Assembly (NCBI GenBank): GCA_028707125.1
Contig: JAQTUX010000001.1
Coordinates: 394,375 to 458,374, forward strand
From: Candidatus Omnitrophota bacterium
Lineage (GTDB): Bacteria; Omnitrophota; Gorgyraeia; Gygaellales; JAQTUX01
Length of the DNA stretch: 64,000 nucleotides
Reading direction: 5' to 3'
In this document: positions 5,991-34,491 of the stretch, piece by piece
Position numbering within the stretch: the stretch's first letter is position 1
Layout: each line of letters begins with the position of its first letter
Program-made: the position numbers and the translations under genes
Notes under the pieces: generated by a model
Database searches by the model: none
Told to the model about the DNA's origin: nothing
What the model saw: the letters and a program-made list of their open reading frames with translations, nothing else

Positions 5991-6061
5991 TCCCCGATAT
6001 TTGTCAGCGGGGAAGAAATATAGACGTTAAAATGGGGGTTGATTTCCAAAGGAGGTGCGCA

Positions 6062-8993: not shown

Positions 8994-11212
8994 AGAAAAC
9001 AATAGTCCTTATTCATCCCCCCGTTGATTTGGGCCAGCGATATGGGTGGCTGGCATTTGCCGGAGGAATAGAGCCGCCGTTAGGGCTGTGTTTCCTGGCT
9101 GCCGCCTTGAGAGAAAGGGGGTTCAGGGCAGCGATCGTTGACGCGCAGTCGCTGGGATTGGATATAGAGGATACGTTGAATCTCGCCTCGCGATACGATC
9201 CGGATTACATCGGGATAACTTCGGTTACCTCCACGATCTCATCCGCTATGAAGCTGGCGGAGGGCGTTAAGAAGATGCTTCCGCGCGCAAAGGTCATATT
9301 GGGAGGATGCCATGTCAGCGCGCTTGCGGAGCAGGCCATGCGGCAATGCGCTTGTTTTGATATTGGGGTCCTGGGGGAGGGGGAGGCGACCTTGAGCGAA
9401 TTACTGGAGGCGTTGGAGGGCGGCAAAGAGTTGTTTTCAGTGGACGGCATCGTTTTCCGGCAAGGCGGTCAGTTGTTTAAAACCGCCCCGAGAAGGCGGA
9501 TCGATGATATAGATACGCTTCCCTTCCCGGCGTTTGACCTGCTTCCCGGGATAAACAGCCATTACCGTGTTCCGCTCCAAAGCAGGGCAGGCGGCCATTC
9601 CTTTTCACTTATAGCTTCGCGCGGCTGCAGGGGAAGATGCGTTTTTTGCGATAGAGGCGTTTTCGGCAATCATCTCCGGCTTAACAGCGCAGAGTATATA
9701 GTGGATATGGTAAGATACATATATAAAAGAGGCGTCCGTTGCCTTATTTTCGAAGACGATGATTTCCTGGTTTCCAGTAGCAGATTGGCAAGGTTCAGAG
9801 ACCTGATCAGAAGGGAGGGCATTGATATATCCTGGTCCTGTTGCACCCGCATGGATACGTTTGACAAAGACACCCTGCGGATCGCTAAAGACGCCGGGTG
9901 CTGGCAGATAATGGCAGGCATAGAAAGCGCGGAACAGGCCATCCTCGATTTCAGCAATAAAGAGTTGAACTCAGAGATCGTGAGGGGCAAAATAAATCTT
10001 GCGAAAGAATCCGGAATTCAGATAAAGGCCTTCTTGATGTTCGGCAACCCCGGAGAGACCGCAGAGAGCTTAGCGAAGACCACGGATTTCGTCCTCGGGC
10101 TGCCTTTAAGCGATATAAGCATTACATTTTTTACTCCGTTTCCCGGGGCCGATATCTGGAAAAACATCGGTGACTACGGCAGTATAATTCAAAGTTTTGA
10201 CCGGTTTAATTGTTTTGAGCCGGTGTTCCTGCCCAAAGGTATCAGTAAGGATGTTTTGATGAAGTATTATGCTTCAGCCCTGTGCAGATTTTATTTGCGC
10301 CCTCAGATCATAAGGAATTACCTGCGCAGGATAATGCCGTCCGGTACGGCAGCCAGGCCCGGCCATAAAGAAAAACGCCTTATTGTCAGCGCGCATGATT
10401 TTGGCCTGAGCAAGGGCGTAAACGACGGCATTATAGATTCGTTTAAAAAAGGCATAGTTACTAACGCGTCTGTTATTTCCTGCGGGAAATATTCCTCCGA
10501 AGCAATAAATTTCCTTAAAGCCAATCCTGATTTGAAGGCGGGAGTGCATTTATGTTTAACCGAGGAAAGGCCGATCCTGCCCGGCAGCGAAATACCCAGT
10601 CTTATTATGAATGACGGGAGGTTCAGGAGATCAAAGTGGCGGTTGCTTGCCGCCTGTATTTCAGGCAGGATCAAGGCCGGCGATATTGAAAGGGAATTTC
10701 AGGCGCAGATAGCCAGGGTTAAGAGGGAAGGGGTAGAGATCAGCTATCTGGACGGGCATTGTTATGCGCATATGTTACCCGGGATAACGGATATCGTAGC
10801 GCGCCTCGCGCAGAAATATAATATCTCCGGAATACGCCTGCCCCATCAGTCCTTTTGGCTTATTGTTAAAGAAGCCGAAAGCAATAATCTTTCCAGAGTC
10901 ATTTTCCAAATATTGTTGAATTTACGATGTATAATATTAAGGAAACGGTGGAGGCGGTTGGGTTTTTATGATACGGATGATTTTATGGGTTTTGTCAGCA
11001 GCGGTCATTTAACGGAGAATAGACTGTTGAAATTGTTGAGGTCGTTAAAAGGCGGGGTCACGGAGGTGATCTCGCACCCTGCGGACGCCGATGATGAGAT
11101 GCAGAAGGGATATCGGGGATGGAGATATGACTGGGAAGCGAACAAGCAGGCGCTGGTATCCAGCCGCGTAAAGGACGCGATCTCAAAAGGGGGGATAGGG
11201 CTTGGAGCTTGA
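8990..11212 (+). CDS. Trifunctional fusion: B12-binding domain + radical SAM domain + YdjC/ChbG-family carbohydrate deacetylase domain (HpnJ+HpnK-like)
   Basis: GTG start overlapping upstream TGA (GTGA); N-terminal B12-binding Rossmann-like region; 'IASRGCRGRCVFCDRG'; C-terminal 'LIVSAHDFGLSKGVNDGIIDSF...HLCLTEE' YdjC-like. Confidence 0.7.
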   Translation: MKKTIVLIHPPVDLGQRYGWLAFAGGIEPPLGLCFLAAALRERGFRAAIVDAQSLGLDIEDTLNLASRYDPDYIGITSVTSTISSAMKLAEGVKKMLPRAKVILGGCHVSALAEQAMRQCACFDIGVLGEGEATLSELLEALEGGKELFSVDGIVFRQGGQLFKTAPRRRIDDIDTLPFPAFDLLPGINSHYRVPLQSRAGGHSFSLIASRGCRGRCVFCDRGVFGNHLRLNSAEYIVDMVRYIYKRGVRCLIFEDDDFLVSSSRLARFRDLIRREGIDISWSCCTRMDTFDKDTLRIAKDAGCWQIMAGIESAEQAILDFSNKELNSEIVRGKINLAKESGIQIKAFLMFGNPGETAESLAKTTDFVLGLPLSDISITFFTPFPGADIWKNIGDYGSIIQSFDRFNCFEPVFLPKGISKDVLMKYYASALCRFYLRPQIIRNYLRRIMPSGTAARPGHKEKRLIVSAHDFGLSKGVNDGIIDSFKKGIVTNASVISCGKYSSEAINFLKANPDLKAGVHLCLTEERPILPGSEIPSLIMNDGRFRRSKWRLLAACISGRIKAGDIEREFQAQIARVKREGVEISYLDGHCYAHMLPGITDIVARLAQKYNISGIRLPHQSFWLIVKEAESNNLSRVIFQILLNLRCIILRKRWRRLGFYDTDDFMGFVSSGHLTENRLLKLLRSLKGGVTEVISHPADADDEMQKGYRGWRYDWEANKQALVSSRVKDAISKGGIGLGA

Positions 11213-12868: not shown

Positions 12869-13882
12869 ATGAAGAGACTGACGGTTAGGCTGGCGCTGGT
12901 CCTGTTCGGGATAGCAGCCGGCATATTTATCTGCGAGTCATTCCTGCGCGTCAATCCGGCATATAGATCCAAATATGGCCTGTTTAGTTTTAAGACCTCC
13001 GAGAAATTGTCGGATATATATAGAGACATAAAATACAGGCCTTCCCCAATATACGGCTATGAATTTATTCCCAACAGCGCTGTCAACGTCAACTCTTATG
13101 GATTATGCGGCCCCGAATATATCCTTAAAAAAGGCAGGGACGTATTCCGGATCCTGTTAATAGGCGATTCCATCGCGGCTCAAGACGGCACAGCCAGATT
13201 CTTGGAGAGCCGTCTTAACACACGGCCCATTCATCCCGGATATAAATATCAATTATGGAATACAGGAGTGCCTTCCTATGATCTGCGCAGGTACGCCCTC
13301 GTTTTGAAGCATAAGGGTTTGGCCTATAAGCCGGATATGGTAATGGTATTTTTCTGCTACGGAGACCTTGATATAGACAGTTCGTTTTACTGCAGGGGCA
13401 AAGAGGGCGCTGTGTATAGATACAATATCTCTCTGCCGGAGCTGACCAAGCAGCGCATACCGAATTATCTCTTATTGAAACATTCTTATCTCTATAGATT
13501 TCTAATTTTTCAGGCAGAGTCATATCTGTCCGGCAAGAAATCCTCCATCGGCAATTCCGGCAGAGAGGATGCAGCTCTGACATACCTGTCTGCCATAAAA
13601 GCCCTCTGCGTTAAGAACGACCTGTATTTATTGGGGGTGGTGTTCCCGTCTCTTAAGCCCGCGGCGGAATATTCGGCGTTAGAGAGGGAGCATTTTGTCA
13701 TCTTGCGCGACACAATGGATGTTCTGGGTATCGATTATATAGATTTATGCGGGCTTATACCCGAAGAAAAGAGGGCGGCGATCAGGGAGAGAAGGGATGA
13801 TGTCTTCCATCCCTCTTCCGAAGGGCAGGGCCTTATCGCCGATATTATCTATGAATATATCAAGGTCCATTTCAAAGGATAG
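12869..13882 (+). CDS. Membrane-anchored SGNH/GDSL hydrolase or acyltransferase
   Basis: 'FRILLIGDSIAAQDG', 'WNTGVPSYD', 'RRDDVFHPSSEGQG'. Confidence 0.6.
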   Translation: MKRLTVRLALVLFGIAAGIFICESFLRVNPAYRSKYGLFSFKTSEKLSDIYRDIKYRPSPIYGYEFIPNSAVNVNSYGLCGPEYILKKGRDVFRILLIGDSIAAQDGTARFLESRLNTRPIHPGYKYQLWNTGVPSYDLRRYALVLKHKGLAYKPDMVMVFFCYGDLDIDSSFYCRGKEGAVYRYNISLPELTKQRIPNYLLLKHSYLYRFLIFQAESYLSGKKSSIGNSGREDAALTYLSAIKALCVKNDLYLLGVVFPSLKPAAEYSALEREHFVILRDTMDVLGIDYIDLCGLIPEEKRAAIRERRDDVFHPSSEGQGLIADIIYEYIKVHFKG

Positions 13883-19423: not shown

Positions 19424-20470
19424 ATGATTATAAGGATTAAAGAACTGCTTAAGAATATATCGCTGGCTGCCGCATCTTCTTTTATTGTTTTGTTTATAAT
19501 TAATTATTTTGTGGGTATATTCTTTGATAAAGAGATCTCCAGGGTGCAATGGGCGCAGGACCATACGGTAAGATTAAGGATGTCGGATAACCCCGAGATA
19601 ATGTTTGAGGCCACCCCTAATATAGGGGAGGCAAACAGCCAGGGGCTGAGGGATTTTGAGTATAGTTTTAAGAAGCCCAATGGCACACGCAGGATCGCGG
19701 TAATCGGTGATTCCATATCCTATGGTATAGGAGTTGAAGTAGAGGAGTCATGGCCTAAGCAGCTGGAAAAGAAATTGAATGAAGATAACGCCGGCGCCAG
19801 ATTTGAGGTCATAAATTTTTCCGTTCCCGCTTATTCAACCGTGCAGGAAGCGGAGGTCCTGAGGACCAAGGCGGTAAAATATGACCCGGACCTTGTCATC
19901 ATAGCGGCCTTTGAGAATGATAACGCCATTTACAGTTCGGAGATGAATAAAATATTTTCCAGTGAAGCGTCTCCGGATTATTTTGACAGCGTGCATGTTT
20001 TGTTCGACCCCGGGCTATCCGGCTTTCAAAGGTCTATCTACAGCAGCAGCCTCGGAAAGTTTATCAGGTACAGGCTTGCCCTGCTGAAGGATTCTGGTTT
20101 AAATAGATCAGGTATCCTGAGATATCCCAGCCCCGGCAGACATATAAGATATATCAGCGAATATTACAACGACGTTGATGTTATCGGTTCGGGCTTTAAG
20201 AAGATAAGTTCAGTACTCAGAAAGCACAGGCTGCCTTGCCTGGTAGTATTTTTCAGTCATACGGAAAACACGGTTGTCCGCGATAAGATCAGCGGGATAT
20301 GCCGGGAAAACAGCATCGCCTTTATGGATACAATGCACCTTTTTCCATACAAAGAAGAGGACATCAAGGGAAGTTATTATATAGATAACTGCCATCTGAC
20401 GCCGTATGCCCATGCGCTTTATGCCGATGAGGTTTATCTGAGATTGAGATCAATGGGGGTCGCGGGATAG
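19424..20470 (+). CDS. Membrane-anchored SGNH/GDSL hydrolase or acyltransferase
   Basis: 'RRIAVIGDSISYGIG', 'INFSVPAYST', 'IDNCHLTPYAHA'. Confidence 0.6.
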   Translation: MIIRIKELLKNISLAAASSFIVLFIINYFVGIFFDKEISRVQWAQDHTVRLRMSDNPEIMFEATPNIGEANSQGLRDFEYSFKKPNGTRRIAVIGDSISYGIGVEVEESWPKQLEKKLNEDNAGARFEVINFSVPAYSTVQEAEVLRTKAVKYDPDLVIIAAFENDNAIYSSEMNKIFSSEASPDYFDSVHVLFDPGLSGFQRSIYSSSLGKFIRYRLALLKDSGLNRSGILRYPSPGRHIRYISEYYNDVDVIGSGFKKISSVLRKHRLPCLVVFFSHTENTVVRDKISGICRENSIAFMDTMHLFPYKEEDIKGSYYIDNCHLTPYAHALYADEVYLRLRSMGVAG

Positions 20471-20485
20471 GGACTGACCGCTATT

Positions 20486-22048
20486 ATGGACCGGTTTGTA
20501 TTCAGACAGAAGATAGTGTATGTTTTAGCCGGCATAATGCTGGCCTTAGCCGCCCTTGAGCTGGGTATGCGCATAACAGGCAAGGTCCTAAGTTATAGAC
20601 AAAACAGGCGCAACACAATGGCATTACAGCGCAGTGGCGCATACCGCATTTTATGCCTGGGCGAGTCCACCACCGCGGGGCAGTGGCCGCTTTTCCTGGA
20701 AGAGATGCTTAATGAGAAGAAAACAGGGCTGAAATTTACGGTGATAGATAAGGGCGTCCCGGGGACCAACACCGGTTTCATAGTATCTATGCTGGAAGAG
20801 AATATTGACCGGTATAAACCCGATATGGTGATCACCATGATGGGGGCTAATGACGTTTGGACCAATATAGTATACAGGGGCACCCTGGCTGTGAGGACGG
20901 AGATATTTCTTAAAAATTTCAGGATATATAAGCTATTCAGAATATTAGCGGTGAATATTGCCGGGAAGATCCAGATAAGGCATGACGTAAAAGAGGCGGC
21001 CACTGCCCCGGTCCCCGAACATGATTACCTGAAATTGGCCGGTTCCTATGAGGCGCAAGGGCAATATGGCGAAGCGATCGCCATGTACCGCAAGGCCATC
21101 GAGGCCGATCCGGATAATAGCCGCATATATCAGACGTTAGGCATGCATTATCGTGAACAGGAAAAATACGAAGAGGCCGAACGCGTCCTGCAACGAGCCA
21201 TTGAAATCGACCCGCGTAATGATTATGCGTATGTAGAGCTGGGGCGTTGTTATCTGGAGAGAAAGATGTGGGATAAGGGGATACCGGTATTGGAAAAGGC
21301 CATAGATATTAATCCTCGTGAAACATACGCTTATTTATTCCTGGGCATGGCCCTTAATGAGCTGCAGCAATGCGATAAGGCGATAGGGATATTAAAAGGC
21401 GCGCTGAACAGCGATCCGGATAATGTGTTTGCGCTGGAGGCGCTTGCGATATGCTCTGAGGGCCCGGGGTTATTCAAGGAACGGGAATACGCGTTTAAGA
21501 GATTGATAGCCCGTAATCACAGGGCCGCCTGGGCTTATGTTGAGCTGGGGCGCAGTTATGGCAAGCAGGGCAGGTTTGCCGAAGAGAGGGCTTTATATGA
21601 GAGTGGTATCGAGTCGTATCAGCGAAAAGACTTCCTCTACCGCCTGATCGCGTTATCTTTTGAGAAGGAAGGAAGACATAATATGGCAAGAAGGTATTTT
21701 AATATGGCCGCGGAGATGTCGATGAAACAGTATGATCATATAATGGCGCAGAATTATCGGCTCCTGAAAGATATCGTTAAAAGCAGGGGATTGCAGCTGG
21801 TATGCGTGCAATATCCAATGCGCAGCGCAGAGCCGTTAAAGGCGATGTTTGAGGTTACCGAGGGGGTTATTTTCGCAGATAATGAGAAAATATTTAAAGA
21901 CGCTGTAGCGGCAGGCGGATATGGGGAATATTTTGTAGATAATTTCGGCGGCGACTTCGGCCATTGCACCGATAAAGGCAACCGCCTGTTAGCCGGGAAT
22001 ATAGCCGATACCATAGAAAGGGAATATTTCAGTGGAATGCCGCGATAG
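20486..22048 (+). CDS. SGNH-family enzyme with ~6 TPR repeats inserted between block III and block V
   Basis: TM helix; 'YRILCLGESTTAGQWP' (block I, GES), 'KGVPGTNTG' (II), 'MMGANDVW' (III), TPR-like repeats 'AIAMYRKAIEADPDN...', then 'GGDFGHCTDKGNRLLAGNIA' (block V DxxH). Confidence 0.6.
   Translation: MDRFVFRQKIVYVLAGIMLALAALELGMRITGKVLSYRQNRRNTMALQRSGAYRILCLGESTTAGQWPLFLEEMLNEKKTGLKFTVIDKGVPGTNTGFIVSMLEENIDRYKPDMVITMMGANDVWTNIVYRGTLAVRTEIFLKNFRIYKLFRILAVNIAGKIQIRHDVKEAATAPVPEHDYLKLAGSYEAQGQYGEAIAMYRKAIEADPDNSRIYQTLGMHYREQEKYEEAERVLQRAIEIDPRNDYAYVELGRCYLERKMWDKGIPVLEKAIDINPRETYAYLFLGMALNELQQCDKAIGILKGALNSDPDNVFALEALAICSEGPGLFKEREYAFKRLIARNHRAAWAYVELGRSYGKQGRFAEERALYESGIESYQRKDFLYRLIALSFEKEGRHNMARRYFNMAAEMSMKQYDHIMAQNYRLLKDIVKSRGLQLVCVQYPMRSAEPLKAMFEVTEGVIFADNEKIFKDAVAAGGYGEYFVDNFGGDFGHCTDKGNRLLAGNIADTIEREYFSGMPR
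21791..22020 (+). repeat. ~230-nt segment with high nucleotide identity to 30774..31003 (3' ends of the two SGNH-TPR paralogs)
   Basis: e.g. 'aagctggtatgcgtgcaatatccaatgcgcagc' vs 'aagctggtatgcgtgcagtatcctatgcgcagc'; '...ggcgacttcggccattgcacc...' vs '...ggtgacttcggccactgcacg...'. Confidence 0.6.
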
Positions 22049-23444
22049 GGCTGTTTATTTACCAGGGTTTTTTCATAAGCCGGAGAACATATTTGCTATT
22101 ATAGGGTTAATGTGGGGAATCCTGTTTGTATTTATAACCCCTCCTTTTCAGGCCCCTGATGAGGACCTTCATTTTTACCGCGCCTTTCATGTTTCCGAAG
22201 GCAATATAAAAGCTTCATTGCGCTCGGGCACGGCCGGGGGCCATCTGCCGCGCAGCCTCGAAGACACGGTCAAGGTCTTTTCCGGCGTGTCTTTTTTCCA
22301 TAAGCATAAACAGAAAATAGGGGATATTATTTCTGCTGCCGGCCGTCCGCTTGACAGTGAAGACAGGGTATTTATTAATTTAAGGGCTATGGCGCGGCTC
22401 TCCCCGGTTGCCTATATCCCGCAGGCCCTGGGCATTATGCTGGGCAGGCTATTCGATCTCCCCGTGTTAATACTGATGTATCTGGGCCGTATATTTAACC
22501 TGTTATTCTGGATATTGGTCATGCGCCGCGCCATCAAAAACATCCCGTTACTTAAATGGGGCGTTTTGCTGTTAGCCCTTATGCCCATGTCGTTGTTTCT
22601 GGCCTCTTCCCTGAGCGCTGACGCGATGACAAACGCCCTGTCATTTCTTTTGATCGCGGTATTCCTGCGATGCGCGTTTGATAAGGGCGTATCCGTTATA
22701 AGCAGGAGAGAATTGGCCGTATTATTTTTATACTCTGGCCTGGCCGCCCTAAGCAAGCCGTACCTGTTTCTTGCATTATTGTTTCTTTTGATCCCGCGGG
22801 AGAAGTTTTGTTGCCTGAGAAGTTACCTTAAGGTATTTTTCTCATTGTTGTTTACCGGCATAGTTGTTCAGGGCATATGGTGCTTTACGATCAGGGAGCT
22901 GTTTGTGAGTATCAGGGCGGGAGTGGAAGCGTTGCCGCACATTTCTCTCGTTGTATTCGACCCCCTTAAGTACCTCGCGGTTTTGATCGGGACGCTGTAT
23001 GCGAACGGGTTTTTTTACGCCGATTCGTTCATAGGCAGGCTTGGCTGGCTGGATACTCCCTTGCCGTTATTTCTGGTTATCTCGTATTACGCTGTCTTGA
23101 TCCTCGTCCCTGTTCTTGAGCGCCCCTCCGGGATAACGATCCATTACAGGCAGAGAGTTGTGGCGCTTATAACAGCATTGGCGGGGTTTATTTTCGTGTT
23201 TACATCTCAGTATCTGTCTTATACGCCTTTATGGGGCGATATTATTGAAGGGGTGCAGGGCAGGTATTTCATTCCTTTCGCGCCGGTGTTATTCTTGATC
23301 CTCTATAACGGTAATATGCCGTTTAATATCAGGCGCTACGCTGCCATAGTAACAGGTTATGCCGTATTCGCGTTAAGTTACACATTGGTAGTTCTGGCGT
23401 GCCGGTATTATCTCCCGGTTGAATTTTATAACGCCCTCAGGTAA
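22032..23444 (+). CDS. DUF2142-like GT-C membrane protein (putative polyprenyl-P-sugar-dependent transferase)
   Basis: 'FITPPFQAPDEDLHFYRAFHV' PDE motif typical of DUF2142; ~10 TM. Confidence 0.55.
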   Translation: MECRDRAVYLPGFFHKPENIFAIIGLMWGILFVFITPPFQAPDEDLHFYRAFHVSEGNIKASLRSGTAGGHLPRSLEDTVKVFSGVSFFHKHKQKIGDIISAAGRPLDSEDRVFINLRAMARLSPVAYIPQALGIMLGRLFDLPVLILMYLGRIFNLLFWILVMRRAIKNIPLLKWGVLLLALMPMSLFLASSLSADAMTNALSFLLIAVFLRCAFDKGVSVISRRELAVLFLYSGLAALSKPYLFLALLFLLIPREKFCCLRSYLKVFFSLLFTGIVVQGIWCFTIRELFVSIRAGVEALPHISLVVFDPLKYLAVLIGTLYANGFFYADSFIGRLGWLDTPLPLFLVISYYAVLILVPVLERPSGITIHYRQRVVALITALAGFIFVFTSQYLSYTPLWGDIIEGVQGRYFIPFAPVLFLILYNGNMPFNIRRYAAIVTGYAVFALSYTLVVLACRYYLPVEFYNALR

Positions 23445-25546: not shown

Positions 25547-26347
25547 ATGCATTATCTTGATGAGTTAGAAAATACAAGTATTTTTATAATCCGGGAAGCC
25601 CATTACAAATTTGCAAATATCGCCGCCCTGTGGTCTATAGGCAAGGATTCCACTACGCTTCTATGGCTTTGCCGCAAGGCGTTTTTCGGTAAGATCCCTT
25701 TTCCCATAATCCACATAGATACCGGATACAAGTTCCCCCAGATGTATAAATTCAGGGATATTTATGCTGAGAAATGGGGATTGGACCTTATTGTCGGCAG
25801 GAATGAAAAGGCCATAGAAAAGGGTTCTTCGCCCGAGAAAGGCAGGTTAGAGTGCTGTGATCTGCTTAAAACCGAGGCCTTAAAACAGACAATAGCCGGG
25901 CATGATCTCAAGGCCCTGCTCTTAGGCATAAGACGGGATGAGCACGGCATCAGGGCCAAAGAGCGGTATTTTTCTCCGCGCGACGACAAATTCCGATGGG
26001 ATTATCAAAACCAGCCTGCTGAGCTCTGGGAGCATTATAAATCCAGCTTAGAAAAAGAAGGACATTTCAGGGTCCACCCGTTGCTCCATTGGACAGAACT
26101 GAATATCTGGCAATATATAAAGAGAGAAAAGATCCCTGTAACAGGGCTCTATTTTGCCAGGGGCGGCAAGCGTTATCGCAGCATCGGCTGCGTTCCTTGC
26201 TGCCGGCCCGTTGATTCAAAAGCAGATACCATAGATAAGATCATAGATGAACTTAAGACGACCCGGATCGCCGAACGCTCAGGAAGGGCGCAGGATAAAG
26301 AGAATGCCTATGCGATGCAGAAGTTAAGGTCGTTAGGGTATATGTAG
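25547..26347 (+). CDS. cysD: Sulfate adenylyltransferase subunit 2
   Basis: PP-loop 'LWSIGKDSTTLLWL', 'LHWTELNIWQYI', C-terminal 'RYRSIGCVPCC...MQKLRSLGYM'. Confidence 0.8.
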   Translation: MHYLDELENTSIFIIREAHYKFANIAALWSIGKDSTTLLWLCRKAFFGKIPFPIIHIDTGYKFPQMYKFRDIYAEKWGLDLIVGRNEKAIEKGSSPEKGRLECCDLLKTEALKQTIAGHDLKALLLGIRRDEHGIRAKERYFSPRDDKFRWDYQNQPAELWEHYKSSLEKEGHFRVHPLLHWTELNIWQYIKREKIPVTGLYFARGGKRYRSIGCVPCCRPVDSKADTIDKIIDELKTTRIAERSGRAQDKENAYAMQKLRSLGYM

Positions 26348-26354
26348 AAAGCCG

Positions 26355-27194
26355 ATGGAATTGACATTAATCTTTATTGTAATAATGATTATGACCGCAT
26401 TTATATGTGAGTATGTGGATTCAACATTGGGCATGGGATACGGTACGGCGCTTACCCCCATCCTTTTACTCTTGGGGTTCAGCCCTTTACAGATCGTGCC
26501 TACGATATTGTTATCCGAATTGATCACCGGAATATCGGCGGGGCTCCTGCATCATAAGCAGGGCAATGTAGAATTCAAATTAAAGACGAATAATCTTGCT
26601 TTGATCTTTCGGAAAGTAAGTTCCCTGGGGTTTAGAGAAAGTTTCATAAGGGGTGTTTCCAAACATCTGAAGATCGGTCTGTTGCTGGCCGTCTGCAGCG
26701 TAATAGGGACTGTTGCCGCGGTCTTTGTCGCGGTTAACATTCCTAAATTCTGGCTTAACCTCTATATCGGATGTCTGGTGTTTTCAATGGGGATAATTAT
26801 CATTGTCTGCTTTAATAGAAGTTTCCCCTTTTCCTGGAGAAAGATTACCTTTTTGGGCATAATTGCTTCTTTTAATAAAGGGATGAGCGGAGGCGGATAT
26901 GGGCCGTTGGTAACCAGCGGCCAGATTTTATCCGGGGTTGATGGTAAGAGCGCCGTAGGCATTACCTCTTTGGCCGAAGGTTTGACCTGTGCGGTGGGGG
27001 TAATCACCTATCTATTCGTTGCCAAAAATCCCATTGATTGGAAATTGGCCCCCTATATTATTACCGGCGCTGTGTTGTCCGTGCCTTTTTCAGTAATAAG
27101 CGTAAAAAAGATAACAGGGGAGAGATTAAAAATAGCCATCGCCTTGTTTACCATAATACTTGGCGCGGCGACTATTGTACGAACCTTACGTTGA
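26355..27194 (+). CDS. TSUP (TauE/SafE) family anion permease, putative sulfate/sulfite transporter
   Basis: ~8 TM, duplicated 4-TM halves, 'GMSGGGYGPLVTSGQIL'. Confidence 0.65.
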   Translation: MELTLIFIVIMIMTAFICEYVDSTLGMGYGTALTPILLLLGFSPLQIVPTILLSELITGISAGLLHHKQGNVEFKLKTNNLALIFRKVSSLGFRESFIRGVSKHLKIGLLLAVCSVIGTVAAVFVAVNIPKFWLNLYIGCLVFSMGIIIIVCFNRSFPFSWRKITFLGIIASFNKGMSGGGYGPLVTSGQILSGVDGKSAVGITSLAEGLTCAVGVITYLFVAKNPIDWKLAPYIITGAVLSVPFSVISVKKITGERLKIAIALFTIILGAATIVRTLR

Positions 27195-27195
27195 G

Positions 27196-28425
27196 ATGAA
27201 TGATGACACGCTTAAATTAGTTATAGTCGGCCATGTGGACCACGGCAAATCTACGTTAATAGGCAGGCTGCTGTTTGATACCGGCTCGTTGTCTAAAGAT
27301 AGGATCGAGGAAATAGAAAAGACCTCAAAGGAATTAGGCAAAGAGTTTGAACTCGCCTTCCTGACGGATCATCTTAGGGAAGAAAGGGAAGGGGCCAGGA
27401 CTATAGATACTACACAGGTTTTCTTTTCCGCCGGCAAGAGGCATTACGCCATAATTGACGCGCCCGGGCACGTTGAGTTTATAAAAAATATGATCACAGG
27501 CACAACGCATGCGGACGTCGCGATCTTAGTGGTGAGCGTAAAGGAAGGGGTAGAAGAGCAAACCAGGAGGCATGCCTATTTACTGAAAATGTTAGGCATA
27601 AGGAATCTGATCGTTGCCGTGAACAAAATGGATATGGTTGATTATAGCCGGTCCGAGTTTCTGGCGGTTAAGAGGAAGACGGAGGAATTACTGTCCTTGA
27701 TCGGTATTGCTGCCCTGGATATCATCCCCATATCTGCCAGGGAAGGAGATAATATTATCAGTGATTCAAGGCGAATGCTTTGGCACAGAGGCCGTTCTTT
27801 GCTGGAGGTGTTAGATGGGGCAGGTTTAGACGCGTTTACCGGCAGCGGGATCCTACGCCTTCCGGTACAGGATATGTATAGCATGGGAGATAAAAAGCTC
27901 TATGTCGGCAGGGTGGAATCCGGAGAACTCAATGAGAAGCAATCGGTATTGGTTCTTCCTTGCAATAAGATGGTAACTGTGGAATCAATTCATAAATTTA
28001 AGAAGAGAATACGCAGGGCGGGCATAGGCGAATGCGTTGGTTTTATTCTTAAAGAACCGGTAATTATCAGCCGCGGCGAGGTTATTTGCGGGGAAAAAGA
28101 TGCCCCCGCGATTACCCGGCGTTTTAAGGCTGTCATATTTTGTATGTCCAACGGGCCTCTTAAAGTTGATGAAGAACTGGTCTTTAAGTGCGTTACTCAG
28201 GAGGTTTTATGCCGGGTTGAAAAGATAGAAAGAAGGATTGATCCCTCTTCGTTGAGGTCATCAGGAAATGACGCGAAGTGCCTGGAATACGCATTGGCGG
28301 GAGAGGTCAGCATAAAGACAGAGCAGCCCGTAGTTATTGATGATTTTCGCAGAGTCAGCCGATTAGGAAGATTCATCTTGGAAAAAGAACACGATGTAGT
28401 GGCCGGAGGAATAGTAACTTATTGA
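27196..28425 (+). CDS. cysN: Sulfate adenylyltransferase subunit 1 (GTPase), no APS-kinase domain
   Basis: 'LKLVIVGHVDHGKSTLIGRLL', 'DAPGHVEF', 'NKMD'; ATG 27196 lies 1 nt after TSUP stop (ORF track 27160 overlaps). Confidence 0.8.
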   Translation: MNDDTLKLVIVGHVDHGKSTLIGRLLFDTGSLSKDRIEEIEKTSKELGKEFELAFLTDHLREEREGARTIDTTQVFFSAGKRHYAIIDAPGHVEFIKNMITGTTHADVAILVVSVKEGVEEQTRRHAYLLKMLGIRNLIVAVNKMDMVDYSRSEFLAVKRKTEELLSLIGIAALDIIPISAREGDNIISDSRRMLWHRGRSLLEVLDGAGLDAFTGSGILRLPVQDMYSMGDKKLYVGRVESGELNEKQSVLVLPCNKMVTVESIHKFKKRIRRAGIGECVGFILKEPVIISRGEVICGEKDAPAITRRFKAVIFCMSNGPLKVDEELVFKCVTQEVLCRVEKIERRIDPSSLRSSGNDAKCLEYALAGEVSIKTEQPVVIDDFRRVSRLGRFILEKEHDVVAGGIVTY

Positions 28426-28458: not shown

Positions 28459-29487
28459 ATGTCTAAACTGATCATCAGTTTTACCCGCCAGTTATCCACC
28501 CTTGTCAAGGCAGGCATTCCGCTCCTGCGCGCCCTGCAGATAATCGCCCCCCAGGTCCAGGACAGGCGCTTCAGGAATGCGGTTGAGCAGGTCCTTATTG
28601 ACGTGGAAGAGGGCAAAAGCCTGTCAGAGGCGCTGTCGCTGCACCGCAGGTATTTCTCTAATTTCTACATAAATATGATAAAGGCCGCGGAGGTCAGCGG
28701 CAACTTGGCCGCGGTATTGAAAGAACTCTCCGATTATCTCGTGCAGAACAGGAAACTTTTAAACAGCGTGCGTTCCGCGATGATGTACCCGATCTTCGTT
28801 TTGTTTATGTCCGTAAGCATCCTGGCGATCATAATGGTTTTCGTCATACCTACCTTGACAAAGATCTTCGCGGATCTGGGCGGAGACCTGCCTCCGGCAA
28901 CCAAGCTTCTTATAGGGATGAGTAATTTTATTGTTGAATGGGGATACTTATTCCTTCTGGGGCTTGTTCTTTTCGGCTTTTTTATTTTCTTTATGTCCAG
29001 AAAACCCGCCCTAAGCAGGATTCTAAATGCCTGGAAGTGGAAATTCCCTGTATTAGGCGATATATTGAAGATGGTCACCATCGGAAGATTTTGCCGCACC
29101 CTCGGCACCCTGCTTTCATCAGGAGTAACTATTTTAAAGGGGCTGGAGGTGTTGAGGGAAACCACTATATCTCCTTTGGTGGAAGATGCCCTGGCTTATA
29201 TTTATGAAAAGGTGGAAGGGGGCACTAATCTTTCCGATGCCATGGAAGAAACGGGGGTTTTTCCCCTTACCGTAGTAAAGATGGTGGGTATCGGAGAGGA
29301 GAGCGGCAAGGTTTCCGGCTTGCTTCTGGAAATAGCCGAGGACTATGAAGACGAGGTCTCTACAGCGTTGACCGGTTTTATATCGCTTCTTGAACCTCTC
29401 TTGATAGTGGTGATGGGCGTGATCATCGGATTTATCGTGATATCTTTATTCTTCCCCATATTTACCATGGGAGAGCTGGTAAAATAG
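28459..29487 (+). CDS. gspF: Type II secretion / type IV pilus platform protein GspF/PilC family (short form, 342 aa)
   Basis: Two T2SSF repeats: 'FTRQLSTLVKAGIPLLRALQII' and 'FCRTLGTLLSSGVTILKGLEVL'; 3 TM. Confidence 0.65.
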   Translation: MSKLIISFTRQLSTLVKAGIPLLRALQIIAPQVQDRRFRNAVEQVLIDVEEGKSLSEALSLHRRYFSNFYINMIKAAEVSGNLAAVLKELSDYLVQNRKLLNSVRSAMMYPIFVLFMSVSILAIIMVFVIPTLTKIFADLGGDLPPATKLLIGMSNFIVEWGYLFLLGLVLFGFFIFFMSRKPALSRILNAWKWKFPVLGDILKMVTIGRFCRTLGTLLSSGVTILKGLEVLRETTISPLVEDALAYIYEKVEGGTNLSDAMEETGVFPLTVVKMVGIGEESGKVSGLLLEIAEDYEDEVSTALTGFISLLEPLLIVVMGVIIGFIVISLFFPIFTMGELVK

Positions 29488-29515: not shown

Positions 29516-31021
29516 TTGTCAGAGGATATGCAGAGAACTCCCCCCTCAAAGATAACGCTTCGGCAGAAAATAATGTTGGTGATGTTTGGGCTTGCTCTTT
29601 TTATTCTATTGCTTGAACTGAGCTTACGGCTTGGCAGTTGTATTTTGTCATCTTTTCAGGAATACAGAAACAGGGTTACTTTGAGGCAAAAAGGCGCATA
29701 CCGTATCATGTGTTTAGGAGAGTCAACCACTGTGTTGGGAGGCAGCAACGCCTATCCCTATCAACTCGAGAGAATATTGAACCGGCAGGCAACAGGCATA
29801 AGGTTCAGCGTGGTAAATAAGGGATTGGGAGGGGACAATACCGCGGATATACTAAGCGATCTGGAGGAAAAACTTGACAGATACAAGCCGGATATGATCA
29901 TCGCGATGATGGGCATAAACGATGGCGGGCAGCATATGCGCTATAAAGAAACGCCTGGATCAGGGAGATTATTCTTGAGGTATTTCAGGACGTATAAATT
30001 AGCCAGGATCGCCTGGATGCATATCATGGCCATGGTGAAGGGCGCGGCCGGGCCCAGGGCGTTTCTCAGCCCGAAAGAGTGTTATGCCGAAAGCCCCGGC
30101 TCTATGTCCGATTATAATAGATATGTGGAGGCGGGAAGATTATATATAAAAAAGGACGATTATGCCGGGGCGGAAGACATGTTTGAGAAGGCGCTTGAAC
30201 TGGATCCCGCGGATCCGGGTTTATATATGGAATTAGAGATATGTTATAATAAACAGGGCAAGTTTTCCGACGCGGAGAGGATGTTCACAAAGGCAATAGA
30301 AATCGACCCCGGAAATTACTCCATATATATAGGATTAGGCGTATTTTACAGGGATCAAGGTAATCTTGAAGAGGCCAAGAATATATTGAACAGGGCGATT
30401 GGATTAGAACCGGATTGCCCGGATGCTTATATTGAACTGGCCTGGTGCTATAAGGATAACACGGCGGATGAGCTGCTAAAGAAGGCAATCGAATTGGATA
30501 CCCTGAATTATGATACCTATATAAGTTCCGGTATGCTGTATAAGTACCATAATAACTATATCAAGGCCGAAAGCATGTTTAAGAAGGCGGTCGCGCTGGA
30601 CCCGGATAATGAACAGGGGCATATCTGGCTGGCTGTCTTATACAGCCAGACGGGGAAAGATGATCTGGCGGCAAGATATTACAAGGCAGCGCATCAATTG
30701 AGGGATGAGTATTATAATTCTATGACTTACCGCAATTACCAGGAGCTTAAGAGCATTGTAGACAGAAGGGGCATTAAGCTGGTATGCGTGCAGTATCCTA
30801 TGCGCAGCATAGAGCCGCTGAAAAGAATATTTGAATATCAGGACGGCATTATATTTGTAGACAATGAGAAGATATTTAAGGACGCGGTAGGCAGGGACGG
30901 CTATGGCGTTTATTTTGGGGATAGTTTTGCCGGTGACTTCGGCCACTGCACGCCCGAAGGCAACAGGCTTCTGGCCGAAAATATAGCATTCGTGCTGTTA
31001 AAAGAGTATTTTAATAAGTAA
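29516..31021 (+). CDS. SGNH-family enzyme with inserted TPR array (paralog of 20486..22048)
   Basis: 'YRIMCLGESTTVLGG', 'KGLGGDNTA', 'MMGINDGG', TPR repeats, 'AGDFGHCTPEGNRLLAENIA'. Confidence 0.6.
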   Translation: MSEDMQRTPPSKITLRQKIMLVMFGLALFILLLELSLRLGSCILSSFQEYRNRVTLRQKGAYRIMCLGESTTVLGGSNAYPYQLERILNRQATGIRFSVVNKGLGGDNTADILSDLEEKLDRYKPDMIIAMMGINDGGQHMRYKETPGSGRLFLRYFRTYKLARIAWMHIMAMVKGAAGPRAFLSPKECYAESPGSMSDYNRYVEAGRLYIKKDDYAGAEDMFEKALELDPADPGLYMELEICYNKQGKFSDAERMFTKAIEIDPGNYSIYIGLGVFYRDQGNLEEAKNILNRAIGLEPDCPDAYIELAWCYKDNTADELLKKAIELDTLNYDTYISSGMLYKYHNNYIKAESMFKKAVALDPDNEQGHIWLAVLYSQTGKDDLAARYYKAAHQLRDEYYNSMTYRNYQELKSIVDRRGIKLVCVQYPMRSIEPLKRIFEYQDGIIFVDNEKIFKDAVGRDGYGVYFGDSFAGDFGHCTPEGNRLLAENIAFVLLKEYFNK

Positions 31022-31067: not shown

Positions 31068-31442
31068 TTGTTTATGATAAGCAGGCATAAGGCTATTTTC
31101 GGGTTTACCTTAATAGAGATAATAATCTCCCTGAGCATCCTTGCCCTGGGGCTTGTGTCTCTGTTTAATTTTTTCCCCGTAGGTTTAACCGCGTTAAGGT
31201 ACGCGCGTAGAGTTAACGATATCGCCCTGTTCGCGCAGAAGCAGCTTGAGCATATCAAGACATTCCCGGATACGACTGAATTATCGGGGGAGGCGGAGAA
31301 CTTTACCTGGCAGATGGCCAGGGCGCCGTTGGACCTGGAGGAGGGCATAAAGGTTACCGTCGTAGAGTTAAAGATAGATTATGAATTCGGAGGGAGCGCC
31401 CTTGAAGAAAGATTTGTCACTTATCTGGACGCGCAGGAATAA
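31068..31442 (+). CDS. Minor pseudopilin (GspI-like) with prepilin cleavage/methylation motif
   Basis: 'HKAIFG|FTLIEIIISLSILALG' (G/F cleavage site, E at +5), 124 aa. Confidence 0.65.
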   Translation: MFMISRHKAIFGFTLIEIIISLSILALGLVSLFNFFPVGLTALRYARRVNDIALFAQKQLEHIKTFPDTTELSGEAENFTWQMARAPLDLEEGIKVTVVELKIDYEFGGSALEERFVTYLDAQE

Positions 31443-31446
31443 GGGA

Positions 31447-34400
31447 ATGAATAACAAAGGGCAGGCGATATTTCTGGTGCTGGGCATACTGACTATCTTA
31501 TTTATAGTGGGCGTGACAATGTTTTATTTTACGCAGAGAGAGCGCGCCGCGGCAGTAAGGTTTGTTGAGAGCGTGCGTTCTCAATACGCGGCAGAGGCGG
31601 GGGTTGTGTATGCCAGGAATATCCTCAGGCAGGATAAGAAGCAGAACGCCGTTGACGGGTTCAACGATAAGCAGTTCACCTTTTTTAAGGGTGAGGATCA
31701 TGATGTAGATAAGGACGGGATAAACGAAAGCCGCTGGCTTACCTTGCGGGACGCGAATAACGGCGAATTCGCGAGGGTCGCCGTGTTGGTTTCCGACGAG
31801 GCGGGCAAGGTCAATATAAATACCGCGGGTACCGGGGTCGCGGCCGGAAACGGGGTCAATCTGTATGAGGTCAACCTGAGCGGTTTACTTTCGGCTATAG
31901 GGCTGCCCGCGCAGCTGGCGGGGGAGATAATCTCCTACCGGCTGGGCCCAAACGGCCTTCCCGGAGACGCGGGCGTAGATGACAATGGCAATAATTATCT
32001 GTTTGAAAATAACGGCTGGGACGACGACAGCGACGGGGTTGTTGATGAAAAAGGCGAAGGCGTGGATGAAATGCAGGAGTGCGATCCCTTTTACGTATAT
32101 GGGGACGACAGGGTCTGGGGCATACCTGAGGGGGTTTCCCGCATCGAGCTCGATCCTTTGGCATTGGATTTAGATAAGGCATTGCGCTACGTCACATCTT
32201 ACTCCAGGGATTATGAGGTCGGCTTGAACGGTTCGCGCCGCCTTTCCTTAAGAGGCGCGAGGGCGCAGGATGTGCTTGAGGCGTTCTTAAGCGCGGGGGT
32301 CACTAATGCCTATAAAAGCGCGGCCGATTTTGTGGACGCGTTCGATCCCGACCTTTCCCAGGCCTATATTGATAAATATTATTTTAAGATACAGCCTTCG
32401 GGCCTGGTCAATCCGGGCGGATGGGTAAGCGCGGGGGGTTCTTACATGGCCCAGGCCGGTTCGGCGGAAGGGGTGTTCCGCTGGCAGAACCTGCCTTTGG
32501 CAGACGGTGAATATTACTGCTCTTTGTACGGCAACCCCTCCTCTGTGTATATCGGCGATGTGGTTTATCCCGACGGTAAGGTTGACGCTGACCTGCGCCA
32601 TATGGCGGTATTGATAAAGAAGGTAACGGTATCCGGAGGCTCTTTTGAGTTAACAATAAGGCCCCATAAGGAAAAGATCTCTTATCTTTCCACCGCTGAG
32701 CTTTCTCTCACGCAGTCAAAACAGGGGCTCAGCCGCGCCAAGATCGCTGGCCGCGAGGCGATAGTCATTAATGAGATCATGCCCAATCTTTCCGTTGAGG
32801 CGTCTGTTTCCGCGAATGACGCTCCGGGAGGCGATTGGATATTTGAGGGAGATTATTTCAAGAATGCCGTACACGAGGGCGGCAAAGCAGGGGAAGGCAA
32901 ATGGGTATTTGAAGAGATAAGGCAGGGTTATTATTATCTGCGGCTTTTGGGCCTGGCGAGTTCGCTTGTGGGAGACGTTTCTTGCGGCGGGGAAAATGCC
33001 TCCGGCGTTATTTCCGGCGACTATCTTCCTGAGCCCGTCTATGTGGGAGGAGACGGAGAATTAAACGTATATATACAGAATAATTCTACGAATCAGACCG
33101 CCTATTTCAAGGGCATCATGCTTACTCAACAGCCGGACGCCGAATACATAGAGCTGCTTAATCTATCCGGCAAGGAGATCGATCTGAGTAATTTTGTGGT
33201 CGAGGTGTATGATAACAAGGGGCAGCTTGCCGTGGGGTATCCCGCGGAGATACCTTCTAATACCGCCATCGGCTCTTACGAATATCTGGTCCTGGCTGTT
33301 GACGCCAAAGATACAAGCCCGGAAGGCCTGAAGAATAACGGCCTGAGCTTTAAGTCCGTCTGGGGCTCCGAGGCGGCAGGCCTTGAGTTTGATAAGACGG
33401 TCAATGCCGGCTACGACCTTATTCCCGACGGGGGCGGCAGCATAATGCTTAAGACGCCGGAGGGATCGGCGGTTGATTCGGTTGAATATGTTTCCGCGGG
33501 CAACTTTGTAGCCCTTGAGCGTTCAGACCCTACCGCCGACTACGACAGCGACGCGGACGGAAAATTTGACGGCTGGTTTAACTGCCTGGATAAAAAAGGC
33601 GGCACACCGGGCGCGGAGAACGACAACAGCGATATGTATGATACCGACCCGTCTACGGGAAAGCCGTACAAACACAGCATAGACGAAGTGGGCGTATTCA
33701 ATCGTTACATCTATAATATAGCCGATTTTGTTAATCTGTCTTCCGGCTCCAGATGGCAGAAAAGGGCGGTTTATGATCTGGCAAAAATAGCGGATAAGTT
33801 TTCCGTGAATTCTTTGGATCTGGCGCTTGCGGGCAATTTTGTTGAAGGCGATTGGCGGCTTAAGTCGGGTATGTTTATTCCCAATCAAACAGGTTCAAGA
33901 GGGCTCTGGCGATGGGATAAGGTCCCCGCGGGGACATTTGATCTGAGGGTGATGGGCGAAGAACAGGGCCACCCTAATTTTATAAAGGTGGGCATCAAGA
34001 TCGGCGAGGAAGGCGAATTCATATCTTCCTCTTCGTTATTGATAGAGAACGGCCAGGCATATTACGGCAAGATCGCGGTGCCCGCGGCTACTTCTCTGGA
34101 GATGGAGATAACGGACAACTCATCGGAGTTGATAGGGTTTAATTACCTTATTATCGAGCCCCTGTATGAGGTCGGCGGCAGGATAAATATAAATACAGCG
34201 CCGGTTGAGGTCCTGGGGGCGCTGTCCCTGTCTTCTTCAGCGATAGACAATATTTTGATCAACAGGCCGTTCGGGGAAGAAGACGCGAGGAAATTAGGTA
34301 CGGGCGAATTGCTTATATCCGATACTTTAGGTGTAAGCGATGAAGAAAAATTAGAGAGTTTTAGACTGATAAGTAATTTGATAACCGTAAAATCGGATAT

Positions 34401-34491
34401 GTATAAGATAGTAAGCGCGGGTGAGGGCATTAAGGAAGGTAAGGCAAGCGGCATAAGCCAGGTAGTAACCGCGGTGGTGCAGAGGCAGTAA
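31447..34491 (+). CDS. Giant GspK-like pseudopilin-associated protein (~1014 aa) with lamin-tail-like domain and acidic Asp-rich repeats
   Basis: N-terminal TM 'NNKGQAIFLVLGILTILFIV'; GspK signature 'VSDEAGKVNINTA' and C-terminal 'GGRININTAPVEVLGAL'; LTD-like 'AEYIELLNLSGKEIDLSNFVV'; 'DDNGNNYLFENNGWDDDSDGVVDEKGEGVDE'. ORF track start 31381 overlaps upstream gene. Confidence 0.5.
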   Translation: MNNKGQAIFLVLGILTILFIVGVTMFYFTQRERAAAVRFVESVRSQYAAEAGVVYARNILRQDKKQNAVDGFNDKQFTFFKGEDHDVDKDGINESRWLTLRDANNGEFARVAVLVSDEAGKVNINTAGTGVAAGNGVNLYEVNLSGLLSAIGLPAQLAGEIISYRLGPNGLPGDAGVDDNGNNYLFENNGWDDDSDGVVDEKGEGVDEMQECDPFYVYGDDRVWGIPEGVSRIELDPLALDLDKALRYVTSYSRDYEVGLNGSRRLSLRGARAQDVLEAFLSAGVTNAYKSAADFVDAFDPDLSQAYIDKYYFKIQPSGLVNPGGWVSAGGSYMAQAGSAEGVFRWQNLPLADGEYYCSLYGNPSSVYIGDVVYPDGKVDADLRHMAVLIKKVTVSGGSFELTIRPHKEKISYLSTAELSLTQSKQGLSRAKIAGREAIVINEIMPNLSVEASVSANDAPGGDWIFEGDYFKNAVHEGGKAGEGKWVFEEIRQGYYYLRLLGLASSLVGDVSCGGENASGVISGDYLPEPVYVGGDGELNVYIQNNSTNQTAYFKGIMLTQQPDAEYIELLNLSGKEIDLSNFVVEVYDNKGQLAVGYPAEIPSNTAIGSYEYLVLAVDAKDTSPEGLKNNGLSFKSVWGSEAAGLEFDKTVNAGYDLIPDGGGSIMLKTPEGSAVDSVEYVSAGNFVALERSDPTADYDSDADGKFDGWFNCLDKKGGTPGAENDNSDMYDTDPSTGKPYKHSIDEVGVFNRYIYNIADFVNLSSGSRWQKRAVYDLAKIADKFSVNSLDLALAGNFVEGDWRLKSGMFIPNQTGSRGLWRWDKVPAGTFDLRVMGEEQGHPNFIKVGIKIGEEGEFISSSSLLIENGQAYYGKIAVPAATSLEMEITDNSSELIGFNYLIIEPLYEVGGRININTAPVEVLGALSLSSSAIDNILINRPFGEEDARKLGTGELLISDTLGVSDEEKLESFRLISNLITVKSDMYKIVSAGEGIKEGKASGISQVVTAVVQRQ

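Follow-up and report, generated by a model that had tools for sequence, protein, structure and literature searches.

Can an array of tetratricopeptide repeats (TPRs) be lodged inside a catalytic SGNH domain rather than appended to it, and what would an enzyme built in this way do? The question is raised by a gene for a 520-residue protein in a 64,000-nucleotide stretch of DNA from a Candidatus Omnitrophota bacterium (GenBank assembly GCA_028707125.1, contig JAQTUX010000001.1, positions 394,375 to 458,374 of the forward strand; 'the window' hereafter denotes this whole stretch). By profile comparison, the two segments that flank the TPRs of this protein are shown to correspond by homology, and in the same linear order, to one SGNH domain, and structure models support their assembly as a single SGNH domain from which the TPR array departs as an excursion. 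A protein identical to the target is on record in the Logan assembly of SRR22315506 (P0001).

The first-pass annotation of the gene had placed SGNH blocks I to III at the N-terminus and block V at the extreme C-terminus, with some 250 residues holding about six TPRs in between. This arrangement is borne out: the motifs are present and conserved in family alignments of 44 and 92 sequences, and the AlphaFold2 (AF2) model gives about seven helical hairpins over residues 178-415. Block I conforms to G-x-S-x-(S/T), block II (K89-G90-V-P-G93-T-N-T) supplies its glycine, block III (M118-M-G120-A-N122-D123-V-W) conforms to G-x-N-D and block V to D-x-x-H. In both alignments S61, G90, G120, N122, D123 and H493 are either invariant or the same in 90% or more of the sequences. 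S61 itself is invariant among the 44 sequences and conserved in at least 90% of the 92, and C57, G59, E60, S61 and T63 are all invariant in the family alignment A1. G120 is invariant and N122 and D123 reach at least 90%; G93 is the majority residue, yet variable. At the other end of the protein, D485, G492 and H493 are invariant across the 92 sequences and D490 varies between D, E and N. The DxxH of block V (D490-F-G-H493) lies 27 residues short of the C-terminus, and the AF2 model has single-residue β-bridges at 483 and 494. In a MAFFT alignment the DxxH aspartate of the window's non-TPR SGNH paralogs pairs with D485; a five-residue loop insertion (F-G-G-D-F) between the ancestral aspartate and histidine of block V is suggested. 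With all four SGNH signature residues conserved, the catalytic domain appears competent. The TPR-bearing family also has three cysteines, conserved at 98-100%, none of which occurs in the non-TPR paralogs: C57 (20654-20656), four residues ahead of Ser61; C440 (21803-21805), on β4; and C494 (21965-21967), which immediately follows His493.

Do the two segments belong to one fold? The Pfam family Lipase_GDSL_2 (PF13472) matches only residues 57-134, which align with positions 1-85 of its 178-position profile and score 34.4 bits, the gathering cut-off being 32.9, and Pfam returns no match over the C-terminal ~120 residues, also when the last 121 are searched alone. When the halves are joined, the match extends to profile positions 1-123. 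We built a joined-halves profile (A3) by fusing residues 45-130 to residues 414-520 in 25 family members. Its alignments with solved SGNH esterases cross the junction, running via β2, block III and the next helix into β4 and β5. Expectation values (E) for the best matches (7DDY, 3W7V, 4IYJ/9HI6, 7C23 and 1YZF) range from 8e-7 to 7.5e-4, with 7.6e-7 for 9HI6/4IYJ, 1.6e-6 for 7DDY and ~3e-5 for Axe2 (3W7V). Aligned by hhalign to a normal-length SGNH paralog from the same window (816..1850), A3 scores a probability of 97% and an E of 3e-11 over 173 columns, pairing GESTT with GDSIA, MMGxND with ALCLND and GDFGHCT with GDYVHPS.

Structure prediction agrees. The AF2 model of the target (mean predicted local distance difference test score, pLDDT, 85.5; predicted template modelling score, pTM, 0.69) has three strands before the TPRs (53-59, 84-88 and 114-118) and two after them (437-441 and 461-464), all with pLDDT above 90. 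The second TPR-bearing paralog of the window (29516..31021) gives the same 3+2 strand pattern (pLDDT 86.5, pTM 0.75), and in its model a short β-bridge, 140-142/399-401, pairs the entry of the insertion with its exit. A Foldseek search of the full target model against the PDB is uninformative on the SGNH part, all 50 listed matches being TPR proteins.

Coevolution links the halves as well. We ran mean-field direct coupling analysis (DCA) on 216 unique joined sequences (effective number, Meff, 174) with 12 shuffled controls. The pairs I116-V441 (β3-β4) and M119-L427 exceed the top N-to-C score of all 12 controls, and M114-V439, also β3-β4, falls in the same parallel register as I116-V441. Within the N-terminal half, Y53-M114 (β1-β3) and R54-T85 (β1-β2) agree with the canonical sheet order β2-β1-β3-β4. 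The 3+2 pattern, the DCA pairs and the colinear profiles are all consistent with the single α/β/α domain of SGNH enzymes, in which a five-stranded parallel sheet of order 2-1-3-4-5 brings serine and histidine together. The two halves are also equally conserved, with a majority-residue fraction of 0.74 in each, against 0.56 in the TPRs and 0.48 in the linker.

A natural TPR-less relative completes the picture. P0159, a protein of 323 residues, is 39% identical to target residues 2-167 and 63% identical to residues 421-516, with ~45 low-complexity residues in place of the TPR array. Two independent samples contain it, and two TPR-bearing paralogs follow immediately downstream. Block III of P0159 (L080:1379-2350) reads G-I-G-D, and a carbamoyltransferase is encoded nearby. 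Because the oxyanion asparagine of block III is lost, P0159 may be a copy in decay and not represent the ancestral state. The claim that the TPRs are inserted within the SGNH domain is therefore supported on five counts: the joined profile, AF2 models of two paralogs, DCA, equal conservation of the halves and the TPR-less P0159. It had been noted that a C-terminal DxxH segment failing to pack with the N-terminal blocks would overturn the claim; judged from strands, pLDDT and coevolution, this is not what the predictions give. From secondary structure, confidence values and coevolution we infer that the serine and the histidine pack together.

Table 1. Features of the target gene, its catalytic motifs and its relatives and neighbour in the window (positions in the 64,000-nucleotide window).
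Feature	Position	Strand	Basis or remark
Complete gene for SGNH protein with nested TPR array, 520 residues, ATG start	20486..22048	+	Open reading frame (ORF) list
N-terminal membrane helix and conserved juxtamembrane helix, residues 4-47	20495..20626	+	AF2: one helix
SGNH N-terminal half, residues 48-125, β1-β3 with blocks I-III	20627..20860	+	Pfam, AF2
Block I, C57-L-G-E-S61-T-T	20654..20674	+	Predicted nucleophile Ser61
Block II, K89-G90-V-P-G93-T-N (oxyanion glycine region)	20750..20770	+	Conservation
Block III, M118-M-G120-A-N122-D123-V	20837..20857	+	Conservation
Linker, residues 126-177, with conserved helix F-R-I-Y148-K-L-F-R-I-L	20861..21016	+	AF2, conservation
TPR array, residues 178-415, 14 helices, ~7 hairpins	21017..21730	+	Pfam, AF2, Foldseek
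SGNH C-terminal half, residues 416-520: helix, β4 (LVCVQYP), β5 (IFAD), block V loop, C-terminal helix	21731..22045	+	AF2, joined-halves profile
Block V region, D485-N-F-G-G-D490-F-G-H493-C494-T	21938..21970	+	Conservation
Membrane-anchored SGNH paralog without TPRs, 16 bp upstream of target	19424..20470	+	Pfam Lipase_GDSL_2, N-terminal half only
DUF2142 membrane protein, start overlaps target end by 17 bp	22032..23444	+	Pfam PF09913, E 5e-74
Second paralog, 501 residues, same nested architecture	29516..31021	+	tblastn 36% identity over full length, Pfam, AF2

The inserted array is a TPR solenoid. More than ten Pfam TPR families match residues ~181-395 (E 1e-13 to 7e-24), the top Foldseek matches are consensus-TPR and OGT TPR structures (E 1e-11), and a sequence search of the PDB with the full protein returns TPR matches only, designed consensus TPR proteins being the best. 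Pfam, the AF2 helices and the consensus-TPR matches all describe tandem 34-residue helix-turn-helix units. Across the family the insert ranges from 164 to 563 residues, and insertions and deletions of whole repeats alter the number of TPRs among members. The TPR block is shown to be a cassette that varies in length (~4-15 repeats) and that the fold can do without. The idea of a recent TPR duplication at the DNA level was dropped, as a search for tandem repeats in the region that encodes the array gave none.

The linker that leads into the array is of low confidence in the AF2 model at residues 126-144 and 160-173 (pLDDT below 50), and between them carries a helix with the family form F-R-x-Y148-K-L-x-R-L-L, Y148 and H157 being nearly invariant. 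An amphipathic in-plane membrane helix at residues 146-163 was considered and rejected: its hydrophobic moment of 0.25-0.43 is unexceptional against a protein-wide 95th percentile of 0.46. According to hhalign, a like helix occupies the same site in non-TPR SGNH paralogs of the window, for example in ORF 816..1850, and because of this the insertion site is the loop that follows block III. The plain paralogs 816..1850, 12869..13882 and 19424..20470 already have 60-100 extra residues there, and in the TPR-bearing family this permissive site, which existed before it, appears to have been enlarged further.

Ahead of the catalytic domain stands the membrane helix, with a 19-residue hydrophobic core whose mean Kyte-Doolittle hydropathy is 2.4 across the family. 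It runs into a juxtamembrane motif, L-E25-x-G-L-R29 ... Q39-E40-x-R-N43, in which E25, R29 and N43 are invariant in alignment A1. Family-wide, the N-terminal flank holds 3.4 lysine or arginine residues (K/R), against 2.1 in the 15 residues past the hydrophobic core.

How widespread is the design? A protein search with the target yields 1,170 matches at E ≤1e-5, many of them 35-42% identical over 98-99% of the length. The nested layout is far beyond chance, because it recurs in hundreds of homologues at this level of identity and coverage. When the C-terminal half alone (residues 415-520) serves as query, 2,342 cluster representatives match at E ≤1e-3, 1,773 of them at E ≤1e-10, and in all 150 of those listed the matching segment sits at the extreme C-terminus. 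The clusters come mainly from Omnitrophota and Elusimicrobiota. Scanning species-representative genomes, we found at least 550 loci; the locus analyses reported here cover the best 77 of these, several contigs among which can share one assembly. The 77 loci are mostly from Omnitrophota, with a maximum identity to the target of 40%, and the remainder from Elusimicrobiota, metagenome-assembled genomes labelled Planctomycetales or Planctomycetia, Patescibacteria, Margulisiibacteriota and Firestonebacteria. They contain 115 ORFs with both catalytic halves; single-linkage clustering gives 186 ORFs, a number inflated by TPR similarity. In 23 of the 77 loci there are two to six copies, mostly close together on the same strand.

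Incomplete or partial relatives also occur. The cluster representative P0123 (325 residues) lacks blocks I-III altogether, its transmembrane helix and TPRs being accompanied by the C-terminal SGNH half alone; a wrongly called start, decay of the gene or a split enzyme might each account for this. All other ORFs in the fetched loci with just the C-terminal half touch contig ends, with the exception of a frameshifted pair (L074:1718-3198). Stand-alone TPR proteins are frequent: examples in the window are 6032..6670 and, on the minus strand, 52356..54281, and 51 such ORFs lie beside family genes in other genomes (L002-L078).

Public names for the family read 'tetratricopeptide repeat protein' and nothing else, with the exception of one JGI label that combines PilF with a lysophospholipase L1-like esterase. 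NCBIfam gives sub-threshold TPR-family matches only, and holds no family model covering the SGNH-TPR architecture. In our literature searches we met no account of TPRs lodged within an SGNH domain, and a 2022 review of SGNH enzymes makes no mention of TPRs. The first-pass annotation called the architecture unusual, which is right as far as the literature goes; in nature it is not rare, as the 1,773 clusters attest.

Besides the second TPR-bearing copy, the window holds three complete SGNH paralogs without TPRs in the glycan locus (816..1850, 12869..13882 and 19424..20470), each with an N-terminal transmembrane helix. In the first two of these an E-x-x-(L/F)-R-like motif stands where the transmembrane helix ends. 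A fourth SGNH ORF (26..826) lacks its N-terminus at the window edge, where it is probably truncated. The paralog just upstream of the target has a ~100-residue insertion at the same site, a DNCH motif near its C-terminus and an hhalign probability of 97% against A3 over blocks I-III. As far as their sequences tell, the non-TPR paralogs look like the parent subfamily of the TPR-bearing form.

The target is part of a tightly packed co-directional run of genes, with intergenic distances between a 17-bp overlap and 33 bp. The order is PMT_2 (a GT-C glycosyltransferase), GT2, SGNH, the target, DUF2142, an alkaline-phosphatase-like protein, CysD, TauE, CysN, T2SS-F and the second SGNH-TPR gene. Further upstream are GT4, GT9, more GT2 and PMT_2 genes, a TPR protein and two radical-SAM enzymes, one of them fused to YdjC. 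In all, the operon brings together three PMT_2-type GT-C enzymes, GT2, GT4, GT9, DUF2142, YdjC, a methyltransferase and the alkaline-phosphatase-like protein. The YdjC fusion (8990..11212) is a 740-residue protein that joins a B12-binding radical-SAM enzyme to a YdjC-like, carbohydrate deacetylase-type domain. The stretch 25547..28425, which lies between the two SGNH-TPR genes, encodes a CysD-like PAPS_reduct protein, a CysN-like GTPase and a TauE/SafE exporter; the presence of sulfate-activation genes within a glycan operon is a hint that the surface glycan may be sulfated. A lone T2SS-F (GspF/PilC-type) gene (28459..29487) lies directly upstream of the second SGNH-TPR paralog and a gene for a 1,036-residue lamin-tail-domain protein (31381..34491) lies downstream of it, with no other secretion-system genes close by. 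Promoter and terminator scans were uninformative. The remainder of the window is nitrogen-assimilation housekeeping, including a second glutamine synthetase copy with an N-terminal HTH_17 DNA-binding domain (47353..48885, minus strand) that lies opposite a canonical amt-glnA-gltBD-pyrG block.

Around the 77 homologous loci the most frequent recurrent neighbour is a B12-radical-SAM enzyme (14 loci), followed by an unassigned 335-residue protein (13 loci) and carbamoyltransferases (10 loci); GT9, GT4, an AMP-ligase, a Wzt-like ABC ATPase and further paralogs of the family also recur. The theme of the neighbourhood is surface-glycan assembly and decoration, without a fixed partner.

What, then, might the protein do? 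The main part in adding O-acyl groups to carbohydrates and in taking them off falls to SGNH enzymes, whose recognition of polymeric substrates is only partly understood. We think it fairly probable that the target is an O-acyl esterase or transferase whose substrate is a glycan of the envelope or a lipid-linked precursor, with the TPRs docking the polymer or a partner enzyme. In such a mechanism, a single-pass membrane-anchored SGNH serine esterase or acyltransferase of the GDSL_2 type would have its post-block-III (β3) loop expanded into a nested array of about seven TPRs. After the TPRs the chain would return to supply a helix, β4, β5 and the block V histidine, completing the catalytic domain. 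The enzyme would remove O-acyl, probably acetyl, groups from a glycan or lipid-linked intermediate of the surrounding operon, or transfer them onto it, and the TPR solenoid beside the rim of the active site would serve as a dock for the polymeric substrate or for a partner enzyme. Such an arrangement would be a one-chain counterpart of the appended TPRs of TviD, which bind TviE (PMC8760489), and of AlgK, which serves the SGNH-like AlgX (PMC9734138). The substrate-docking platform proposed in the first-pass annotation would be a plausible role for the TPRs, and the tandem paralogs differing in repeat number suggest diversification to different substrates or partners.

Several observations weigh against an envelope-glycan O-acyl enzyme with docking TPRs. 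No member of the family has a known activity, substrate or partner, and conservation within the TPRs follows, in essence, the structural consensus of the repeat and shows no obvious ligand-specific signature. In the target the K/R balance is the reverse of that of the family (3 versus 5), with a very basic region just beyond, and the positive-inside rule is ambiguous. By blastp across the 77 loci, PMT_2, DUF2142 and the alkaline-phosphatase-like protein are not conserved beside the homologues, and because these specific neighbours are not conserved, the link to glycans is a loose association. Finally, there is no MBOAT/AT3 acyl-donor partner among the scanned window ORFs or the seven annotated recurrent neighbour clusters. 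This weakens a periplasmic acyltransferase role and leaves a periplasmic esterase or a cytoplasmic acyl-CoA-dependent transferase as the main options.

The latter amounts to a reading of its own, in which the protein would be a TviD-like O-acyltransferase at the cytoplasmic face, held by an N-out/C-in anchor and using its TPRs to recruit GT2, GT4 and GT9 into a membrane complex. The missing MBOAT/AT3 partner fits this, as do the five K/R and no acidic residues in the 15 positions past the target's hydrophobic core, the strongly basic family motif Q-E-x-R-N-R-x-x-x-K-Q-K-G-x-Y-R, and the invariant and apparently unpaired C57, C440 and C494, more typical of cytoplasmic proteins; TviD itself is a precedent for an SGNH domain whose TPRs bind a polymerase on the cytoplasmic side. 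However, the excess of positive charge in the N-terminal flank across the family is that expected of an N-in signal anchor, and the window's non-TPR paralogs, from their sequences, have acidic or neutral flanks after the transmembrane helix. The nucleophile motif is a canonical G-x-S, unlike the G-S-C of TviD. GT-C enzymes of the PMT and ArnT families act at the outer face of the membrane, which would place the neighbouring GT-C enzymes on the side opposite to a cytoplasmic transferase. Taken together, we regard such a cytoplasmic-face transferase as unlikely, though well worth keeping in mind.

Distinctly improbable is a lipase, phospholipase or lysophospholipase acting on the membrane lipids of the cell itself, of a host or of prey, with the TPRs serving protein targeting. 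Pfam family names and the nearest solved relatives do include lipolytic and lysophospholipase L1-like esterases, AF2 tethers the catalytic domain ~5 residues from the membrane helix, and the family is expanded in Omnitrophota, which are suspected of being episymbionts or predators. However, acetyl-xylan esterases, too, are among the solved proteins nearest in sequence, the gene neighbourhoods are glycan-biosynthetic rather than lipid-metabolic, and the permanent membrane anchor makes a secreted effector unlikely. A non-nested protein, with an inactive pseudo-enzyme half on a TPR scaffold and a C-terminal segment that forms a module of its own or is left over from a fusion or frameshift, is largely refuted and hardly credible. 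The Pfam match, confined to the N-terminal half of the SGNH profile and absent from the C-terminal 121 residues, database entries with TPRs and the C-terminal half only, such as P0123, and the one frameshifted copy in L074 would speak for it, but the joined profile, hhalign, two AF2 models, DCA and equal conservation all favour the nested fold, the layout is kept across the 1,773 clusters with the C-terminal half last in the 150 listed, P0159 joins the halves directly, and the remaining C-half-only ORFs of the fetched loci touch contig ends.

We return to a membrane-anchored O-acyl esterase or transferase with a nested docking array, since recognising its split SGNH domain has consequences of its own. 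The annotation of a large family would be put right in Omnitrophota, Elusimicrobiota and related uncultured lineages; thousands of proteins now labelled only 'tetratricopeptide repeat protein' carry the SGNH-TPR design. Recognition of the domain would also point to extensive tailoring of surface glycans in these lineages. A TPR solenoid in a loop beside an active site is a natural, length-variable enzyme-plus-scaffold design, and the TPR-bearing members together with the TPR-less P0159 make a tractable system for asking how nested repeat arrays tune specificity. A bolder extension, which we hold to be quite unlikely to be right in full, sees the post-block-III loop as an evolutionary docking port where solenoid cassettes are gained and sometimes lost, as in P0159, retargeting one scaffold. 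The expanded tandem sets of Omnitrophota and Elusimicrobiota would then make up a hitherto unrecognised system of combinatorial O-acyl editing of the cell surface, the TPR groove reading a glycan or partner and the repeat number setting specificity or reach.

Among known systems, the closest in composition is TviD, the Vi-antigen O-acetyltransferase of Salmonella Typhi, in which nine TPRs follow a complete SGNH domain (residues 1-322) and bind the polymerase TviE, although catalysis does not depend on them (PMC8760489). Both proteins combine an SGNH-type domain and a TPR array in one polypeptide, are membrane-associated and belong to a surface-polysaccharide locus. In TviD, however, the TPRs are appended, whereas those of the target lie between block III and β4 and are followed by block V. 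TviD has an atypical G-S-C block I with a cysteine nucleophile and no recognisable blocks II or III (PMC8760489), and is by this description set apart from the canonical G-E-S, G and G-x-N-D blocks of the target; it also lacks the N-terminal transmembrane helix that the target has. Judged by Pfam annotation of the window ORFs, no viaB-type organisation (tviB/C/E, vexA-E) is recognisable at the target locus.

A second comparison is with systems in which a TPR scaffold and a polysaccharide-modifying enzyme are separate proteins. PelB-PelA and PgaA-PgaB are such pairs of scaffold and modifying enzyme. In AlgK-AlgX the TPR protein is physically coupled to the enzyme, and AlgX is SGNH-like (PMC9734138). 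The TPR protein of AlgK-AlgX-type systems is tied to an outer-membrane porin, whereas the target unites both parts in one chain and its locus has no synthase or porin of this type; the analogy is functional only. The Lipase_GDSL_2 esterases that A3 matches best (7DDY, 3W7V, 4IYJ/9HI6, 7C23 and 1YZF) are single-domain proteins of ~200 residues with neither anchor nor post-block-III insertion, and similarity to them is too low for substrate specificity to be transferred.

The principle of nesting is found in Ape1, where the insertion lies between blocks I and II, not after block III. Ape1, a peptidoglycan O-acetylesterase of Neisseria and Campylobacter, has a CBM35 inserted in its SGNH domain (PMC9487903). 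Like the target, it nests an accessory binding domain within an SGNH fold, and it de-O-acetylates a cell-envelope glycan; the likeness is one of design principle and is not evidence of homology. The insert of Ape1 is a β-sandwich carbohydrate-binding module and that of the target an all-helical TPR array, and Ape1 is soluble in the periplasm whereas the target is membrane-anchored. The combination of SGNH with TPRs (appended, in TviD) and the nesting of an accessory domain in SGNH (in Ape1) thus each have a precedent, and no new catalytic principle is involved; the nested SGNH-TPR family is nonetheless real, widespread and mis-annotated.

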